Shown here piece after piece: positions 17,033 to 34,594 of a DNA stretch of 39,330 bases (within the stretch, counting starts at the first letter, position 1; every line of letters begins with the position of its first letter). Location of the stretch: UHGV virus genome UHGV-0205814, one strand, 5' to 3'. The notes below the pieces were generated by a model that did not search any database, was not told the DNA's origin, and saw nothing but the letters and a program-made list of their open reading frames with translations. This stretch comes from a virus. The position numbers and the translations under genes are program-made.

Positions 17033-17388
17033 AAAATCTCCTGAAAAACAAAAAAGGACTTAAATAAAAAACTAATAAGATTTTTACATCTTAATTAATT
17101 TGTTATCTAAGTCCTTCTACTTTATATTATAAAGCTGTCAATAGATTTCTCTACTTAACGACTTGGTCTTTTAGTTGTTGTTTGTATTATAGCATACATA
17201 TACAGTAAATTCAATATTTATGTTTTGCTTTTATTTTGAATTTTAACAATATTTATATGCTCACATCTACATTTTATTTTTAAGGTATTTTCATCTAAAT
17301 ACTCAACTGACTTACATTTTATTTTTATATTATTTTTGCTTTTTATACTGGCTATAAATTTATTACAATTTTTACATCTGTAAATCAA

Positions 17389-18093
17389 TTAATTCAACTC
17401 CTCAATATTATTATTTCTTTTAAAATTTAATATACTTTCAACATATACTTTTGAATATCCATCAATTAATTTTATTTTATTTTTAATTTCAATAATATCA
17501 TCTTCAAACTGTCTTTTTAAATCTATAAAGTTATCTACAATTTTATTTTGAACTTTCAAACTGGGTATTTCTATTATCATATTTTCAAAATCTGATTTAG
17601 ATAACCTTTTAACTTTTTCCCCAGTTACTTTATTATAAATATACTCTCTAACTTTATCTTTATAATTGAAGTAAAATGATATGTACTTTAAATCAATAAT
17701 ATCTTTAAAGCTATCTTTTAATACTAAGATTGCAACATTGCCATTTATTGCAGCACCTTCTTCATTTTGGTATAAAACACATCTTCCTATATCTTTATAT
17801 TCAAAATCTTCTAAATTTACTAATATTTGTCCTTTATTAATCTTTGTAGCTTTTTCATAAACTTTATTGTCTATCTTGCTTATTATTTCATTGGCAAAAC
17901 AATCATATTTTTTTGAAATTTCTCCATAAAATATAGCTGGTTTCCCAATTATATTTATATCTCTTTTTGTAAAAATATCTTTTTTACTCATATACTTTAT
18001 ATCAAAAATATCAAATATTCTTACCTCTGCACTGCCTCGAACAGAGATAATAATTTCAATTGCTTCTCTGATACAGTCATCGAACTCTTGCAT
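17389..18093 (-). CDS. restriction-modification specificity subunit, single target-recognition domain (half HsdS-like)
   Basis: C-terminal conserved HsdS-type helix (IPSLKVQNKIVDNFIDLKRQFEDDIIEIKNKIKL) after a single variable TRD. The annotated start overlaps the methyltransferase by 73 nt. An internal Met at ~17991 (MSKKDIF) would remove the overlap. Confidence 0.5.
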   Translation of the reverse strand: MQEFDDCIREAIEIIISVRGSAEVRIFDIFDIKYMSKKDIFTKRDINIIGKPAIFYGEISKKYDCFANEIISKIDNKVYEKATKINKGQILVNLEDFEYKDIGRCVLYQNEEGAAINGNVAILVLKDSFKDIIDLKYISFYFNYKDKVREYIYNKVTGEKVKRLSKSDFENMIIEIPSLKVQNKIVDNFIDLKRQFEDDIIEIKNKIKLIDGYSKVYVESILNFKRNNNIEELN

Positions 18094-19007
18094 TTATTCT
18101 TACCTTTCATTTCCTTTTCATATTGATTACATATTACTCTTAATTTTCTTATATTTCCTATTACATCAATATTTGCTCCACATTCTTTAACTAAAAAGAC
18201 ATCTAACTCTAAGTTATTTTTAACACTATTTATCCAAAGTTCAGAAGTCTGATTATTTAAAGCATTTATGTCAATTTCTTCTACTTCTCGTTCCTCTTGT
18301 GGTTGTTGCCAAAAGCATTCAGCTTCTAAAATCCATTCATCTTCTAAAATTTGTTTATCTAATTTACAGTCATAGATTTCTCTAAAAACTTTATTATTAG
18401 TTTTTTCTTTATCTATGACTATAAATAATACAGATATAGTTGTATCTGTGAATGCATTATCAATCCTATTTAACTCAGCTAGGTTATTTCCTATAAGTTT
18501 TCTAAATGTTTCTTCACTTCTTCTATAACCTACACCAGGAAAAAGAATATAAAAACCATATCTTTTTGTATATTTAAGAGATTTTAAAACAAATATATCA
18601 TCTACAACCCCTGACTTCTTCCATTCAAAGTCTTTTTGTATATTCTTTTGTTCTATTTCTGATAAATCTTTAAATTTTATTGAGAATGGGGGATTCATGA
18701 TTACACAGTCTACAAGTAAATCGTTTTTTTCATATTCAAAAAAACTTTTTACTTCAAGTTTTGTATTTTTAAAGTTCTCTCTAGCTGAATTAATAGAGTT
18801 TTCTTGTACATCTACACCATATAAAATTCCTGGTTCAACAAATTGTTCTAATTGTCCACTTCCAACTGCACCATCAAACACAGTTGGATTTTCTATATTT
18901 AGATATTTTTTAACTTTACCAGCTACATATTTTCTTAGTTCTGTACCTGTTATATATTCAGCTAATTTTTTACTCACTTCTCTATTGTTGTGTTCTTTAA
19001 AACTCAT
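18021..19007 (-). CDS. N6-adenine DNA methyltransferase (gamma class)
   Basis: Motif I FDGAVGSGQL followed by motif IV VIMNPPF (NPPF catalytic motif). 328 aa, shorter than canonical HsdM. Confidence 0.75.
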   Translation of the reverse strand: MSFKEHNNREVSKKLAEYITGTELRKYVAGKVKKYLNIENPTVFDGAVGSGQLEQFVEPGILYGVDVQENSINSARENFKNTKLEVKSFFEYEKNDLLVDCVIMNPPFSIKFKDLSEIEQKNIQKDFEWKKSGVVDDIFVLKSLKYTKRYGFYILFPGVGYRRSEETFRKLIGNNLAELNRIDNAFTDTTISVLFIVIDKEKTNNKVFREIYDCKLDKQILEDEWILEAECFWQQPQEEREVEEIDINALNNQTSELWINSVKNNLELDVFLVKECGANIDVIGNIRKLRVICNQYEKEMKGKNKCKSSMTVSEKQLKLLSLFEAVQR

Positions 19008-19353
19008 TTAATTCCTCAATTTCAATTATAAAACAATCTCTATCACAGCCTAATTTCTTGCTTGAAGATAATTCATATATTAATTTATCATCTTCATATA
19101 GAAAGCCGTTAAAACTATCTAATATAGCTTTAAAATAGTTGTCTATATCTCTTTCTCTTTTGCTCTTGAAACATAGTTCTATTTTAACTTTAATTTTATC
19201 TTTAAAGGTTTTATACTTCTGTGATTTTATAAACTGTTGAACATTATCCCTGAACTCTCTGCCTTTCTTGCTAAGATAAGTTACATTGTTACCTCTTCTC
19301 CAATGTGTGTTCATACTATCTGGCTTATATGGTATCTCAAACCTTTGCTTCAT
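18997..19353 (-). CDS. rusA: RusA-family Holliday junction resolvase
   Basis: ~118 aa. Conserved acidic residues (RERDIDNY, YEDDKLIYEL, GCDRD) typical of RusA endodeoxyribonuclease. Confidence 0.7.
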   Translation of the reverse strand: MKQRFEIPYKPDSMNTHWRRGNNVTYLSKKGREFRDNVQQFIKSQKYKTFKDKIKVKIELCFKSKRERDIDNYFKAILDSFNGFLYEDDKLIYELSSSKKLGCDRDCFIIEIEELNEF

Positions 19354-22206: not shown

Positions 22207-22266
22207 TTACATTACCTCCTGTATATTTGGAGAGCCTTGGTAGTTCTCCTTTTATTAATTCAATTA

Positions 22267-22360
22267 GTAGAGCCTATATAGAGCCTACCAAAGCGACATA
22301 TAGACCCCACTAATTCAAGTAATAAATTTACTAGATACTTACTAGAAAGTTACTAGATAT
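22267..22360. repeat. iteron-like tandem direct repeats (2x TAGAGCCTAnn, 3x TTACTAGAnnn) next to an AT-rich stretch; candidate origin
   Basis: TAGAGCCTATA/TAGAGCCTACC at 22267-22288. TACTAGATAC/TTACTAGAAAG/TTACTAGATAT at 22328-22360. Followed by a >100-bp AT-rich stretch with CTTGAAAA repeats (22361-22470). Confidence 0.45.
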
Positions 22361-23003
22361 TTTTTAACTTCTCTTGAAAAAATCTTAATAATTTCATTGA
22401 TATATATAGAAAAAATTAATATTTATCTTGAAAAGCCTTAAAAAAATTTTGAAAGTTTTACATCATACATCTTTACCAGCTACCTAGAATTATCCACAGA
22501 TTAGGTCTTGCCTTTTCTGTGTTAGGTAAAGATGTAAGATGGTCGGTTTTGACATCATAAAACTGCGAACGACAAAATATATAGTTGTAAATTGACGGAC
22601 TTACAACGGTACGGCTAGCTTTAAAATTCAGACGTGGTCCTATAAAATCTACTAGCTTGTTTACACCCTAGAATGTTTTTAAATGCCGTTTTAAGCTCAG
22701 AAAACGGAAGAAAACATATAGATACAATATTTTACGAACTTGTATCGGTACGGCTAGGTCAAAAATATTTAAAAATACGACTAGCATTTTTACTCCAAAA
22801 CTCTATTGTCTTGGCGTTGTAAGATTAGTTCTTACACGCATAGCCACAAGAAAAACATCTTTCAGATTTTGGGAGGAGATAGAAAAACTTATGGCTATGT
22901 GTCTAAGGACTAGCCTTAGATAAATTAAAAAATTTAGACATTAAAGATTAAAGAATAGCCTTTTAATCTTTTTTGTTTTCAATTTTGTACGATTAAATCG
23001 GAA

Positions 23004-23234: not shown

Positions 23235-23290
23235 AAACTCACCTCCCTTTTTATTATATCCGTTTTAACTGGAAATGTCAAATATTTGAT

Positions 23291-29101: not shown

Positions 29102-29824
29102 ATGGAGAAATTAGGATACACAAGACAGACACAGAAATTAATATATTGGCTTTTAGACGACTTTGCTAACTTTTGGCAAGGAAATGAAGCAGGAGCAAGA
29201 CCATCGTTTATAGAACTCGCATACACAAAGCAACTTATGAAGAGAGAGTTTACTAAAATCTATGATGGATTTGATACTGTTAAAAATGCTCAAGCATTCC
29301 TAATTTCTTCTATCTACAATAAGGATAACCTAACAGTAGATGAACTCACAGACAATGTTATAAAGGCATTACAGAGCCTAGCAATTCAAAATGGTGGATT
29401 TAGTTTATCACTTAATTCACTAACTCAAAAACAAGCCAATGATTTTGTTAAGTGGCTATTTGAAATGGCTATTTACTGGGAAATACCTTTAAGACAAGAA
29501 ATAAGAGATTTGTTTGCTGAGGATTATCAAGATACATTTATATGGGTAACTCTCAAAAAAAAGATTTGTTGTATCTGTGGAAAACCAGGAGAGTTACAGC
29601 ATTTTGATAGAGTTGGAACAAGTGGATATAAATCAGATACAGGGCTAAATTATCGTGTAATGTGCTTATGTAGAGAGCACCACAATGAAGCTGATAACTG
29701 TATAAGTAGAATGGACTTTATGAAGAAATATCATCTTGCTGGGATATATCTAAGTCCAGAACAAGTAAAAGAATTGAAGAAAATATATAAAGGACACTTT
29801 CAAGCTTTTAAGGAGGAGAAATGA
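29102..29824 (+). CDS. Cys/His-rich protein, possible HNH/zinc-binding nuclease domain
   Basis: C-terminal CCICGKPGELQHFDRVGTSGYKSDTGLNYRVMCLCREHHNEADNC cluster. Confidence 0.35.
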   Translation: MEKLGYTRQTQKLIYWLLDDFANFWQGNEAGARPSFIELAYTKQLMKREFTKIYDGFDTVKNAQAFLISSIYNKDNLTVDELTDNVIKALQSLAIQNGGFSLSLNSLTQKQANDFVKWLFEMAIYWEIPLRQEIRDLFAEDYQDTFIWVTLKKKICCICGKPGELQHFDRVGTSGYKSDTGLNYRVMCLCREHHNEADNCISRMDFMKKYHLAGIYLSPEQVKELKKIYKGHFQAFKEEK

Positions 29825-30577: not shown

Positions 30578-31084
30578 ATGGAAAAAGAAAAAGTATTAGA
30601 GATAGAAAGTCAAGAGGTATTTGATAGAGTAGCAATAAGAATTAAATATCAAAATTTTGAAGTATTAAAAAGAGGAGAGTTTGAAGTTAGAGGAATAGGA
30701 GTTATTAGTTCTAACAATCCTTGTTATTTATCATATCCATATAATCAATTATGTTTAAAAGGTAAATTTAAAATAGATGATAATTTTGTTTTTACAGTAA
30801 CAAAAGAAGAATTTGAAAATATAAAAAATATGGTTGAAGCAATCAACGAAAAATATGGAATACCTAAGAGATGGAGAGCAGAAGAAGCTGGGGACAATTA
30901 TTTTTATATATCAGGAACAGGTGAAATAAGAATAGACGAAGAAGGTGGAGGAGAAGAAGATTATTTGAGATATGAACTTGGTAATTATTTCAAAACAGAT
31001 GAGGAAGCTAGAAAAATTATAAATAGCAAAGAATGGCAAGACTTCTGGGCTAAGGTAAGAGCAGGAGAGATTGGAAATGATTAA
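30578..31084 (+). CDS. hypothetical protein
   Basis: 168-aa ORF with RBS AGGAGGAG. Overlaps the downstream PAPS-reductase-like gene. Confidence 0.3.
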   Translation: MEKEKVLEIESQEVFDRVAIRIKYQNFEVLKRGEFEVRGIGVISSNNPCYLSYPYNQLCLKGKFKIDDNFVFTVTKEEFENIKNMVEAINEKYGIPKRWRAEEAGDNYFYISGTGEIRIDEEGGGEEDYLRYELGNYFKTDEEARKIINSKEWQDFWAKVRAGEIGND

Positions 31085-31784
31085 ACATATAGTTAGTTTT
31101 AGTGGTGGAAAAGATAGCACTGCAATGCTTTTAATGATGTTAGAAAAAGGATTACAAATAGATGACATTGTATTTATAGATACTGGTGTAGAGTTTTCAG
31201 AAATGTATGAGCATATTGAAAAAGTTGAAAAGTACATAAATCATAAAGTAACAAGATTAAGAGCAGAGAAGAGTTTTGAATATATGTTACTTGAGTATGA
31301 AAAGAAGAAAGGTAAAAACAAAGGACAAAAAGGATATTCTTTTCCAGATTTTAGGAATAGATGGTGTACTAAGTATTTCAAGCAAAGAGTTATTAAAAAA
31401 TACTTAAAAGAAAAATACAAAGGTTTTAAAATAGTTGAATATCACGGAATAGCAATAGATGAGCCAAAAAGACTTGAGAAGAATAAGAACAAAAATATAA
31501 AATATCCACTTGCAGAATGGGGCATAACTGAGCAAGAAGCACTAGAATATTGTTATAGTAAAGGTTTTAGCTGGAATGGGTTATATAAGAAATTTCATAG
31601 AGTTTCTTGCTGGTGTTGTCCTCTTAAAAGTTTAAGAGAATTAAAAGTACTATATAAAGAATATCCAGAATATTTTAAAAAATTGGAAGAATGGGAAAGC
31701 AAGACATATAGAAAATTCAGGGCTGATTATAGTATTAAAGAATTAGGGATTAGATTTGCCAGAGAGATTGGAGGAGATGAATAA
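31071..31784 (+). CDS. PAPS reductase-like PP-loop ATP pyrophosphatase (phage type)
   Basis: N-terminal PP-loop SFSGGKDSTAML. Downstream RWCT and C-terminal VSCWCCPLKS cysteine cluster, as in phage PAPS-reductase-family proteins. Confidence 0.65.
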   Translation: MEMIKHIVSFSGGKDSTAMLLMMLEKGLQIDDIVFIDTGVEFSEMYEHIEKVEKYINHKVTRLRAEKSFEYMLLEYEKKKGKNKGQKGYSFPDFRNRWCTKYFKQRVIKKYLKEKYKGFKIVEYHGIAIDEPKRLEKNKNKNIKYPLAEWGITEQEALEYCYSKGFSWNGLYKKFHRVSCWCCPLKSLRELKVLYKEYPEYFKKLEEWESKTYRKFRADYSIKELGIRFAREIGGDE

Positions 31785-33526: not shown

Positions 33527-34594
33527 ATGAAGGCTAGTAATGGAATGGGAACAATAGTTAAATTAAGTGGAAAAAGAAGAAAACCTTATGCTTTAAAAGG
33601 ACAAGGTGTATACACTGAAAAAGGTTATTATCAACCATTGATTGAAACGTTTACCACTAAGAAAGAAGCTGAAGCATTTAGAATAGCATATTTTAATAAT
33701 AAGATTTTAGAAGATAAGGCAAAAGGAATAGAGAACGTTAAGGAACAAAAAGCGTTATTATTTGAAGATTTGTATAAAATATGGCTTGAAAATAAAAAGC
33801 CTGCTAAAACTTCATTAAGAAATTACACCTCATATTTTAGTAATAGTAAAAAGCTTCATAAGTTAGATATAAAAAATATAAATGGGATCTTATTACAAAA
33901 GATTTTAAATGAACTTGATTTGAGTAAAGGTACTCTAAGAAATTTAAAATCTTTCTGGAAACAATTATTTGACTTCGCACTATTAAACGATTTTTGCCAA
34001 AAAGAATATGTTAGTTTTTTGAAGCTTCCAGCTGAAGAAAAAGGAAAGAAAACAAGTGATAGAAATAGAATATTTACAGCAGAAGATTTACAAAGACTAT
34101 GGGATAATCTTTATAAAGATATTGATAGATTTAAAATACTAGATATTATATTAGTTGATTGTTATACTGGATTAAGACCTAGCGAACTTTTAAATATAAA
34201 AAATGAAAGAGTTTTTCTTGAAGAAAGATATATTGATATTACAAAATCTAAAAGTAAAGCAGGTATAAGAAAACTTCCTATTTCTGATAAAATATATGAT
34301 ATAATTAAAAAAAGATATGATCCTGATGAAGAATTTTTATTCACTAGATATGATGGAGCTAAATTAACATATGATACTTATGATTATGAGTTTAGAGAAC
34401 TTATGAAAGATTTAGGAATAGATTATCATACAGCTCACGATTGTAGACATACATTTGCAACATTATTATCTAACGCAGAAATAGACAAAGAAATAATTAT
34501 AAAATTAACAGGGCATAGTAGTTATAAAATAACATCTGAAAAATATATTCATAAGACATTAAAAAACTATCGTGATGCAATTAATAAAATATAA
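33527..34594 (+). CDS. int: tyrosine site-specific integrase
   Basis: N-terminal arm-type DNA-binding domain (GTIVKLSGKRRKPYALKG). Catalytic residues R (LRPSEL), HxxR (HDCRHTFAT) and Y (GHSSYKITSEKYIH). Confidence 0.85.
   Translation: MKASNGMGTIVKLSGKRRKPYALKGQGVYTEKGYYQPLIETFTTKKEAEAFRIAYFNNKILEDKAKGIENVKEQKALLFEDLYKIWLENKKPAKTSLRNYTSYFSNSKKLHKLDIKNINGILLQKILNELDLSKGTLRNLKSFWKQLFDFALLNDFCQKEYVSFLKLPAEEKGKKTSDRNRIFTAEDLQRLWDNLYKDIDRFKILDIILVDCYTGLRPSELLNIKNERVFLEERYIDITKSKSKAGIRKLPISDKIYDIIKKRYDPDEEFLFTRYDGAKLTYDTYDYEFRELMKDLGIDYHTAHDCRHTFATLLSNAEIDKEIIIKLTGHSSYKITSEKYIHKTLKNYRDAINKI

Follow-up and report, generated by a model that had tools for sequence, protein, structure and literature searches.

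Introduction

In classical Type I restriction-modification (R-M) systems such as EcoKI and EcoR124I, the N-terminal domain of the modification subunit HsdM contacts the restriction subunit HsdR and biases activity toward hemimethylated DNA. HsdR combines a superfamily 2 (SF2) helicase with a nuclease and is usually longer than 750 amino acids (aa). Most phage orphan methyltransferases (MTases) that have been characterized are single-chain enzymes. M.AhdI is an M2S2 assembly with a 25-kDa half-size S subunit and the symmetric target GACN5GTC (PMC2878638). Lactococcal specificity (S) subunits of the TRD1-S.Lcr033I type, which carry a single target-recognition domain (TRD), dimerize and give palindromic motifs such as TTAAN5TTAA in single-molecule real-time (SMRT) sequencing (PMC12418389). 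In HsdM-HsdS complexes the C terminus of HsdM adjoins the N terminus of HsdS, and an EcoKI M-S fusion is active (PMC3510504). Here we describe a pair of overlapping phage genes, M and S, that encode a short adenine MTase and a half-size HsdS. The pair lies at positions 17,389 to 19,007 of the UHGV virus genome UHGV-0205814, a stretch of 39,330 nucleotides (nt) that we analyzed at full length and call the window.

We propose that the pair is probably a minimal phage-borne, Type I-like adenine methyltransferase that would assemble as M2S2, methylate a symmetric bipartite site and serve in anti-restriction. Both genes are conserved, linked and under purifying selection, the catalytic motifs are intact, and no restriction subunit accompanies them.

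Results

The window encodes a short HsdM-like methyltransferase and a half-HsdS

The pair and the gene upstream of it are as follows; the minus strand is the coding strand of all genes around M and S.

18021-19007, minus strand: M gene (open reading frame (ORF) call), 328 aa, 38.2 kDa, a gamma-class N6-adenine DNA methyltransferase.
17389-18093, minus strand: S gene (ORF call), 234 aa, 27.5 kDa, a half-HsdS consisting of one TRD and one long helix.
18997-19353: RusA gene, upstream of M (PF05866, expectation value E 1.2e-17).

An earlier note, made by reading the sequence without database searches, had called this an orphan Type I-like methyltransferase with a half-HsdS, situated between RusA and packaging genes. 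Both ORFs are where that note placed them, and Pfam, PADLOC and PHROG matches agree with the call. M matches Pfam N6_Mtase PF02384 (E 2.5e-7, 30.8 bits, weak but above the gathering score) and PADLOC MTase_I (E 2.3e-7). It is a member of phrog_6380 'DNA methyltransferase', which covers it almost end to end (E 3.6e-80). Matches to PADLOC 'mad2' and 'mad1' were rejected as weak and driven by the MTase domain. S is matched by 52 PADLOC Specificity_I models (best E 9.5e-20) and contains one Pfam Methylase_S PF01420 stretch (residues 22-200, E 1.2e-8) followed by a long HsdS-type C-terminal helix, in keeping with the single TRD that the note had described. Downstream of S lie a zinc-ribbon ORF of 56 aa, another ORF of 118 aa and the terminase genes (small and large), so that the reported setting also holds.

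Both genes are maintained by selection. Across 34 distinct homologous loci, diversity at codon positions 1, 2 and 3 was 0.256/0.187/0.380 where M alone is encoded and 0.224/0.155/0.352 where S alone is. This pattern of purifying selection means that M and S are not chance ORFs. We found the M protein unchanged on 17 contigs, which come from several metagenomes.

M belongs to a family of short methyltransferases that lack the HsdM N-terminal domain

M runs from motif X through the catalytic core to a C-terminal helical region and ends in a 24-residue tail. The parts shared with HsdM are these.

18945..18962, minus strand: motif X-like AEYITG, M residues 16-21, equivalent to GEFFTP of EcoR124 HsdM; HsdM homology begins here.
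18849..18878, minus strand: motif I FDGAVGSGQL (S-adenosylmethionine binding), M residues 44-53.
18684..18695, minus strand: motif IV NPPF (catalytic), M residues 105-108.
18093..18269, minus strand: C-terminal helical region, M residues ~247-305, from predicted helices and the HsdM alignment.

The two gamma-class motifs that had been read from the sequence, FDGAVGSGQL and NPPF, are thus present and intact. In a 25-sequence family alignment with identity down to 27%, G49 and G51 of motif I are invariant and D45 and S50 nearly so, and N105, P107 and F108 of motif IV are invariant. T20 in the motif X-like element is invariant across the short-M family.

With M as a single sequence, the best match in the PDB was EcoR124 HsdM residues 223-434 (E 5.9e-8). 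A 25-member family profile aligned through positions 12-220 to EcoR124 HsdM 193-422 (E 4.5e-30), with a second, weak stretch at EcoR124 HsdM 451-513, and through positions 11-291 to residues 192-496 of S. thermophilus HsdM (3lkd) in one stretch. The start of M corresponds to HsdM residue ~193 (3lkd residue 192), and the HsdM N-terminal domain of ~190 residues is absent, as the first reading of the sequence had it. An AlphaFold 2 (AF2) model of M places helices at 247-276 and 282-305, a block with a predicted local distance difference test score (pLDDT) of 78-89, and a tail helix at 312-327. Foldseek with this low-confidence model returned 7bst_D (EcoR124I HsdM) as the top match (E 1.5e-9), then CamA, M.BseCI and other HsdM structures, which agrees with the sequence-based HsdM results. 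By alignment, the C-terminal helical region of M corresponds to the helices with which HsdM, at its C terminus, holds HsdS. According to work cited in PMC2878638, the HsdM C-terminal region is required for assembly.

An exhaustive HMMER search of 1.84 billion cluster representatives found only 151 clusters (50% identity) at E <= 1e-3. Nearly all full-length members of these clusters are ~300-320 aa long and align from residue 1-5, whereas canonical HsdM proteins (450-560 aa) appeared in the same search at E ~1e-6 to 1e-4 and aligned over the catalytic core only. This pattern of lengths and alignments shows that the short M is a family of its own and not an occasional truncation. Its hallmark is a protein of ~300-330 aa that starts ...E(H/F)NNR...AEYIT..., and the pair in the window fits a module of short M with an overlapping single-TRD gene.

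S retains one target-recognition domain and a long helix

S begins with a 24-residue N-terminal segment that precedes the TRD, and the rest of the protein falls into two parts.

17578..18021, minus strand: TRD, S residues ~25-172, from the Pfam stretch and a nearly gap-free alignment of 14 S proteins.
17413..17559, minus strand: C-terminal long helix of ~49 residues (~179-227), from AF2 at low confidence and the 1yf2 alignment.

The S profile matched residues 332-415 of M. jannaschii HsdS 1yf2 (E 1.5e-4), and the helix aligns to the C-terminal conserved region of that protein. By this homology the helix is presumed to be a coiled coil for dimerization and M binding.

M and S share a conserved dual-coding junction

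The two genes are joined by an overlap that encodes the M tail and the S N-terminal segment.

18021..18093, minus strand: dual-coding overlap, 73 nt; one frame encodes the M tail, and the -1 frame encodes the first 24 residues of S (MQEFDDCIREAIEIIISVRGSAEV).
18024..18095, minus strand: M tail, residues 305-328, KCKSSMTVSEKQLKLLSLFEAVQR, a clade-specific extra helix lying almost wholly inside the overlap.
18103..18107, minus strand: Shine-Dalgarno-like AAAGG, 9 nt upstream of the S start ATG (18091-18093).

We compared 58 viral contigs with an M homologue, at 50 of which the M ORF could be extracted. An ORF opens 70, 73 or 85 nt before the M stop at 42 of these 50 loci. At this place, 70-85 nt inside M, every one of four clades has preserved a start codon and a Shine-Dalgarno sequence of its own. 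The arrangement is AAAGG-N9-ATG in the window and AGGAG-N9-ATG in the clade of phage FNU_1P. A third clade has AAAGGAAG...ATG and an overlap of 70 nt, and in the fourth an ATG or GTG 12 nt further upstream gives an overlap of 85 nt; GAAAGG is also among the clade Shine-Dalgarno sequences. In the 34 loci used above, codon periodicity is flattened in the overlap (0.213/0.246/0.289), as expected when both frames are constrained.

The 73-nt overlap, which the earlier note had put down to either coupled translation or an internal start at Met35 (position 17991), is therefore real, and S starts inside M. Gene callers often choose Met35 for S, giving products of 190-200 aa. That start lacks a well-spaced Shine-Dalgarno sequence. 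We reject it because it would remove the conserved first TRD strand RIFDIFDIKY and because all four clades keep the upstream Shine-Dalgarno sequence and start. We found no significant RNA structure that would couple S translation to that of M (z = -0.17), and the Shine-Dalgarno sequence is unpaired in the minimum free energy fold. A programmed -1 frameshift producing an M-S fusion was also considered and rejected, as the overlap contains no X XXY YYZ slippery site.

The M tail is confined to the Fusobacterium clade, and no family member from outside Fusobacterium has it. In locus L022, which has no S, the tail has accumulated 10 nonsynonymous changes in 24 codons versus 37 in 304 codons in the rest of M. 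The numbers are small, and they suggest that the function of the tail is tied to S.

One metagenomic viral contig (L044 263-1822) carries an in-frame fusion of M (to residue ~316) and S (from residue ~22), 519 aa long. No counterpart was found among 5.8 billion database proteins, and the fusion may be a rare deletion or an assembly artefact. It is consistent with an M C terminus that adjoins the S N terminus.

The cassette is conserved among Fusobacterium phages, and M occurs beside other genes elsewhere

The RusA-M-S cassette is present in ~45 of 50 related viral contigs, and the gene pair is widespread in prophages. In L104-L110, which carry the same M or one 89% identical, RusA-M-S is constant while the flanks differ. 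On the replication side an O-like protein alternates with Phage_rep_org_N plus DnaB. On the packaging and head side Terminase_3 alternates with Terminase_2, an SPP1 portal and an SU10 capsid. These flanks indicate that Fusobacterium phages exchange modules around RusA-M-S.

Is the TRD itself exchanged? The earlier note had described it as swappable. Across 40 Fusobacterium-phage loci with full-length S, TRD identity tracks M identity (r=0.94), with a minimum TRD identity of 43%. The 40 proteins form one orthologous, nearly gap-free family whose most variable part is the C-terminal helix and not the TRD, and no replacement by a foreign TRD was seen among them. L027, L038 and L060 have M proteins that are at least 94% identical yet TRDs only 72-79% identical, which represents local divergence. 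The TRD thus co-diverges with M in Fusobacterium phages, and unrelated TRDs appear only across host genera.

A scan of species-representative genomes with a narrower M alignment (A6) extended the short-M family beyond Fusobacterium, to prophage-like regions of Streptococcus, Gemella, Moraxella, Haemophilus and other Pasteurellaceae, Neisseria, Helcococcus, Peptoniphilus and Leptotrichia. In 15 of 38 genome loci (Streptococcus, Moraxella and Peptoniphilus) a single-TRD PF01420 gene follows M immediately; the encoded proteins are 164-186 aa long (E 1e-15 to 1e-20) and overlap M by 4-35 nt. Their TRD is unrelated to that of the Fusobacterium phages, as hhalign aligns only the generic C-terminal part (probability 61%). 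A scan of the species-representative genomes with the S alignment gave no confirmed relative. In the Pasteurellaceae and in some Streptococcus phages, M lies among other methylase genes and there is no S.

In eight loci without S, a protein of 180-218 aa that we call X takes the position beside M.

L022 3428-3994: X.
L023 3428-3994: X.
L054 4912-5454: X.
L067 6912-7568: X.
L068 5439-6002: X.
L072: X.
L083 5420-5968: X.
L101 4928-5476: X.

X has an N terminus resembling a helix-turn-helix (HTH) and invariant E...D...IDVK...E residues reminiscent of a PD-(D/E)xK-like nuclease, a resemblance that is confined to this motif. It had no sequence match in Pfam, PADLOC or the PDB. The window contains neither an X homologue nor an S of the Streptococcus type.

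Other arrangements were seen at single loci or in single clades. S is wholly deleted in L022 and L023, and L023 has an ORF resembling a C5-cytosine methylase a few hundred bases downstream. One Fusobacterium-phage clade carries an HNHc_6-type protein of 251-266 aa directly upstream of M (L046 3204-4004, L048 2398-3153, L051 2116-2871), and Streptococcus phage Javan169 has a small HNH endonuclease gene in that position (L061 2136-2504).

No restriction subunit accompanies the pair

The earlier note had stated that no R subunit is present, and our searches bear this out. The largest ORF in the window is 585 aa long, so a gene of HsdR size is absent. None of the 65 other ORFs in the window matched HSDR_N, ResIII, EcoR124_C or PADLOC REase_I in Pfam and PADLOC scans, and no PADLOC restriction endonuclease (REase) model is among the matches listed for them. 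Those listed, which leave aside 12 weaker families (E > 1.7e-4, four of them from the PAPS-reductase ORF 31071-31784), comprise RmrA/HTH-type regulators, CapP/CapH-like proteins and SspD/DndC/BrxP-like proteins, the last group coming entirely from that ORF. The only nuclease-type Pfam matches among the other ORFs are RusA, the terminase nuclease and an HNHc_6 gene (29102-29824), which lies 10 kb away on the opposite strand within the ERF-SSB recombination module. Seven other contigs carry this M or one 89% identical to it, and on none of them did we find an R subunit within +/-10 kb of M. A genuine Fusobacterium Type IC locus with a 1017-aa HsdR served as a positive control and was easily recognized by these tools.

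The phage and the surroundings of the cassette

The window is a temperate Fusobacterium phage of ~39 kb related to phages Funu2 and FNU_1P, and it corresponds essentially to a single metagenomic contig of 39.36 kb (logan SRR9161610_25). Besides the features below, it encodes an HTH repressor, a Peptidase_M78 protein, ERF, SSB, the HNHc_6 protein, a PAPS-reductase-like protein, a dUTPase, a replication O-like protein, terminase, portal and tail proteins and an amidase. No tRNA genes and no Rfam matches were found in it.

33527-34594: integrase gene of the phage.
23253..23281, minus strand: candidate early promoter TTGACA-17-TATAAT (12/12), a consensus match only, heading the replication-RusA-M-S operon.
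17218-17388, minus strand: Com-like zinc-ribbon ORF, 56 aa (RCKNCNKF...), with a TTG start right after the S stop.

No terminator-like site was found on the minus strand between the promoter at 23253-23281 and 16 kb. Upstream of the replication genes, and preceded by this perfect minus-strand promoter, is an ORF-poor stretch of ~800 nt (22207-23003) with an imperfect 31-nt inverted repeat (22820-22850 / 22888-22918), several short direct repeats and no Rfam match. It may be an origin or a regulatory region.

The Com-like ORF resembles phrog_6417 'translational regulator' (E 5e-6) and, weakly, Pfam Zn_ribbon_Com (E 0.055). By analogy with com-mom of Mu we considered it as a regulator of M and S and rejected it; it occurs at only 2 of 58 related loci (L004 and L019) and therefore stands outside the M-S module. 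On the plus strand, a PAPS-reductase-fold ORF in the early operon (31071-31784) matches PADLOC SspD (E 4.6e-30) and Pfam PAPS_reduct (3.2e-14). It might have a second DNA-modification or nucleotide-modifying function.

Discussion

How would such a small enzyme work? In the mechanism that we consider probable, the long helices would bring two S chains together in a dimer that mimics a full HsdS. One M would be bound to each S by way of its C-terminal helices, and in the Fusobacterium clade the contact may also involve the two segments that the overlap encodes, the M tail and the S N terminus. The target of the resulting M2S2 would be a symmetric bipartite site, with one adenine methylated per half. 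Loss of the HsdM N-terminal domain should leave a de novo methylase, which would suit a phage, and should prevent assembly of a restriction complex. We infer this complex, its stoichiometry and its symmetric target from homology and from the behavior of related half-S proteins.

The most plausible function is anti-restriction by self-methylation. The cassette ends the replication and recombination operon right before the packaging genes, and from this position replicating phage DNA would be modified before it is packaged and the progeny shielded. The host restriction enzymes guarded against would be those whose target coincides or overlaps with that of the phage enzyme. R-M systems are numerous in Fusobacterium hosts, and as many as 11 occur in a single strain (10.1101/2022.07.20.500824). 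Such R-M-rich hosts, with Type IC loci among their systems, provide a clear selective reason for a phage methylase. One host Type IC locus, L111 (F. vincentii CP084075, 1832824-1845321), encodes HsdM, a 454-aa HsdS with two TRDs and a 1017-aa HsdR, together with a Schlafen/AlbA_2 protein, an AAA_21 protein and a spare half-hsdS of 156 aa whose identity to the phage S is 30%. CP084075 is filed in PLSDB as a 2.1-Mb 'plasmid' and is evidently a chromosome.

Several observations weigh against the proposal of an M2S2 enzyme. The AF2 models are poor, with mean pLDDT of 60 for M and 44.5 for S, and are usable for secondary structure only; their input alignments were shallow, with all sequences at least 70% identical. 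Against PF02384, M scores 30.8 bits versus 357 bits for a Fusobacterium host HsdM, and with so weak a match the M-S contacts could differ from those of classical HsdM and HsdS. Only the order of the genes and a consensus promoter point to expression in the lytic phase. Finally, intact relatives of M without S are common (Haemophilus and other Pasteurellaceae, Mannheimia, Streptococcus Javan phages, L054, L056/57 and L022/L023), and in L048 (4078-4308), L051 (3796-4349) and L052 (4915-5468) M is intact but the S gene next to it is cut short or carries a frameshift. Relatives with no S or an S pseudogene mean that M may work without S.

These relatives are the basis of the main rival explanation, in which M is self-sufficient, being either non-specific or equipped with a reader in its own C-terminal helical region, and S is dispensable or modulates specificity. 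The C-terminal helical domain is indeed common to members with and without S. We nevertheless regard this explanation as unlikely, though it is the strongest of the alternatives. S is kept, overlapping and co-diverging with M in most Fusobacterium loci, unrelated single-TRD S genes have been recruited beside the same M family in other genera, and the clade-specific tail evolves faster than the rest of M in L022, where S is gone. Moreover, in Type I enzymes the HsdM core to which M is homologous is not known to have a DNA-sequence reader of its own. A somewhat less likely arrangement is a 1:1 heterodimer of M and S that reads only a short half-site and modifies a single strand, in the manner of a split M.TaqI-like or Type IIG-like enzyme. 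The L044 fusion resembles a single-chain gamma-class MTase with a C-terminal TRD, and Foldseek retrieved the monomeric gamma-class enzymes CamA and M.BseCI as well as HsdM. That fusion is a singleton with no counterpart among the 5.8 billion proteins searched, and S retains the ~49-residue helix of HsdS coiled-coil type, which dimerizes in all half-S proteins that have been studied (PMC2878638, PMC12418389).

The remaining alternatives are all improbable. The pair could be the modification half of a phage restriction or exclusion system whose nuclease is an unannotated ORF or the HNHc_6 protein (29102-29824). Several window ORFs have no family assignment, an HNHc_6-type gene lies directly upstream of M in clade-C loci, and X, with its PD-(D/E)xK-like motif, adjoins M in eight other loci. 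We give such a hidden nuclease little credence, as the window lacks X, its HNHc_6 gene belongs to a distant recombination module on the other strand, no REase appears in Pfam or among the PADLOC matches listed, and RusA-M-S stays constant while the neighbors of the cassette vary between phages. A shade less probable still is that the phage subunits act on host Type I parts, with S titrating or retargeting host HsdM/HsdR or M borrowing a host HsdS. M keeps HsdM-like C-terminal helices even in relatives without S, and Fusobacterium Type IC loci carry spare half-hsdS genes, including the one with 30% identity to the phage S; against this, the divergence of S closely parallels that of M, the S N terminus and the M tail are clade-specific, and the phage M is very divergent from host HsdM. 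The least probable explanation is that a Type I system was captured and is decaying, and that the pair is what is left of it and no longer has a function. A missing R, a missing HsdM N-terminal domain, a half-sized S and the broken S genes of some relatives would all fit decay. Dozens of diverged loci nonetheless have both ORFs intact, with substitutions strongly biased to the third codon position, the catalytic motifs are invariant across the family, and the short form is a family in its own right, with 151 clusters at 50% identity whose full-length members are nearly all ~300 aa.

Alongside the M2S2 proposal we tentatively raise a broader possibility. The short HsdM core may be a free-standing, modular catalytic cassette of temperate phages that works with an unrelated single-TRD S, with X, or with no encoded partner (perhaps borrowing a host HsdS), its contact with S being reinforced in Fusobacterium by the overlap-encoded segments. 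The short M would then represent a distinct minimal class and not a degraded Type I system.

If our proposal of an M2S2 methyltransferase is correct, the pair would be about the smallest natural Type I-like methyltransferase, at ~131 kDa. It would be a handy model for HsdM-HsdS contacts and half-site recognition, as well as a compact and potentially programmable de novo adenine methylase. It would also explain in part how temperate phages of Fusobacterium, Streptococcus, Moraxella and Peptoniphilus handle R-M-rich hosts. In lysogens, strain-specific N6-methyladenine marks could be added. For Fusobacterium genetics, prophage methylases may supply methylome motifs that are unassigned and help explain transformation barriers.

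Comparison with known systems

Phage FNU_1P (MZ503612) has an orthologous pair that overlaps by 73 nt as well, with 71% identity in M and 56% in S. Its existing annotation reads 'N-6 DNA methylase' and 'restriction endonuclease subunit S', so genes of this kind have been recorded before. In the literature that we searched, we found no description of short M plus half-S as a conserved cross-phylum prophage module, nothing on alternative partners of the short M or on a conserved 70-85-nt dual-coding junction, and nothing specific on Fusobacterium prophage methylases.

The pair resembles M.AhdI, from the AhdI Type II R-M system of Aeromonas hydrophila, in having separate M and S genes and a half-size S with one TRD (27.5 kDa here). 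Compared by description, the two differ in M, which is 38.2 kDa in the phage and 60 kDa with full HsdM-like architecture in M.AhdI. In addition, the phage pair has no endonuclease, whereas AhdI is chromosomal and has a cognate Type II endonuclease. Like truncated HsdS proteins such as TRD1-S.Lcr033I, the phage S combines a single TRD with the conserved helix. However, TRD1-S.Lcr033I serves a full-length host HsdM and HsdR, whereas the phage S has a dedicated short M in a genome without R.

With the classical Type I core (HsdM2-HsdS1, as in EcoR124I and EcoKI) the pair shares a homologous catalytic core with gamma-class motifs, a TRD, the conserved helix and the order of M then S. The M C terminus and S N terminus would also be juxtaposed as in the active EcoKI M-S fusion (PMC3510504). 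Unlike classical Type I systems, it has no HsdR, no M N-terminal domain of ~190 residues and one TRD instead of two; the 454-aa host HsdS gives two PF01420 stretches and the phage S gives one. The genes overlap by 73 nt here and by 1 nt in EcoKI. With no R, no N-terminal domain, one TRD, a 38-kDa M and no Type II endonuclease, the pair belongs to neither the M.AhdI family nor Type I. It would probably act in the way of M.AhdI or a Type I methyltransferase core. Its phage genome, its phrog_6380 membership and the lack of a cognate endonuclease in our searches place it, as judged from sequence, among the phage orphan methyltransferases. Unlike most characterized members of that category, it is built from two subunits, M and S.

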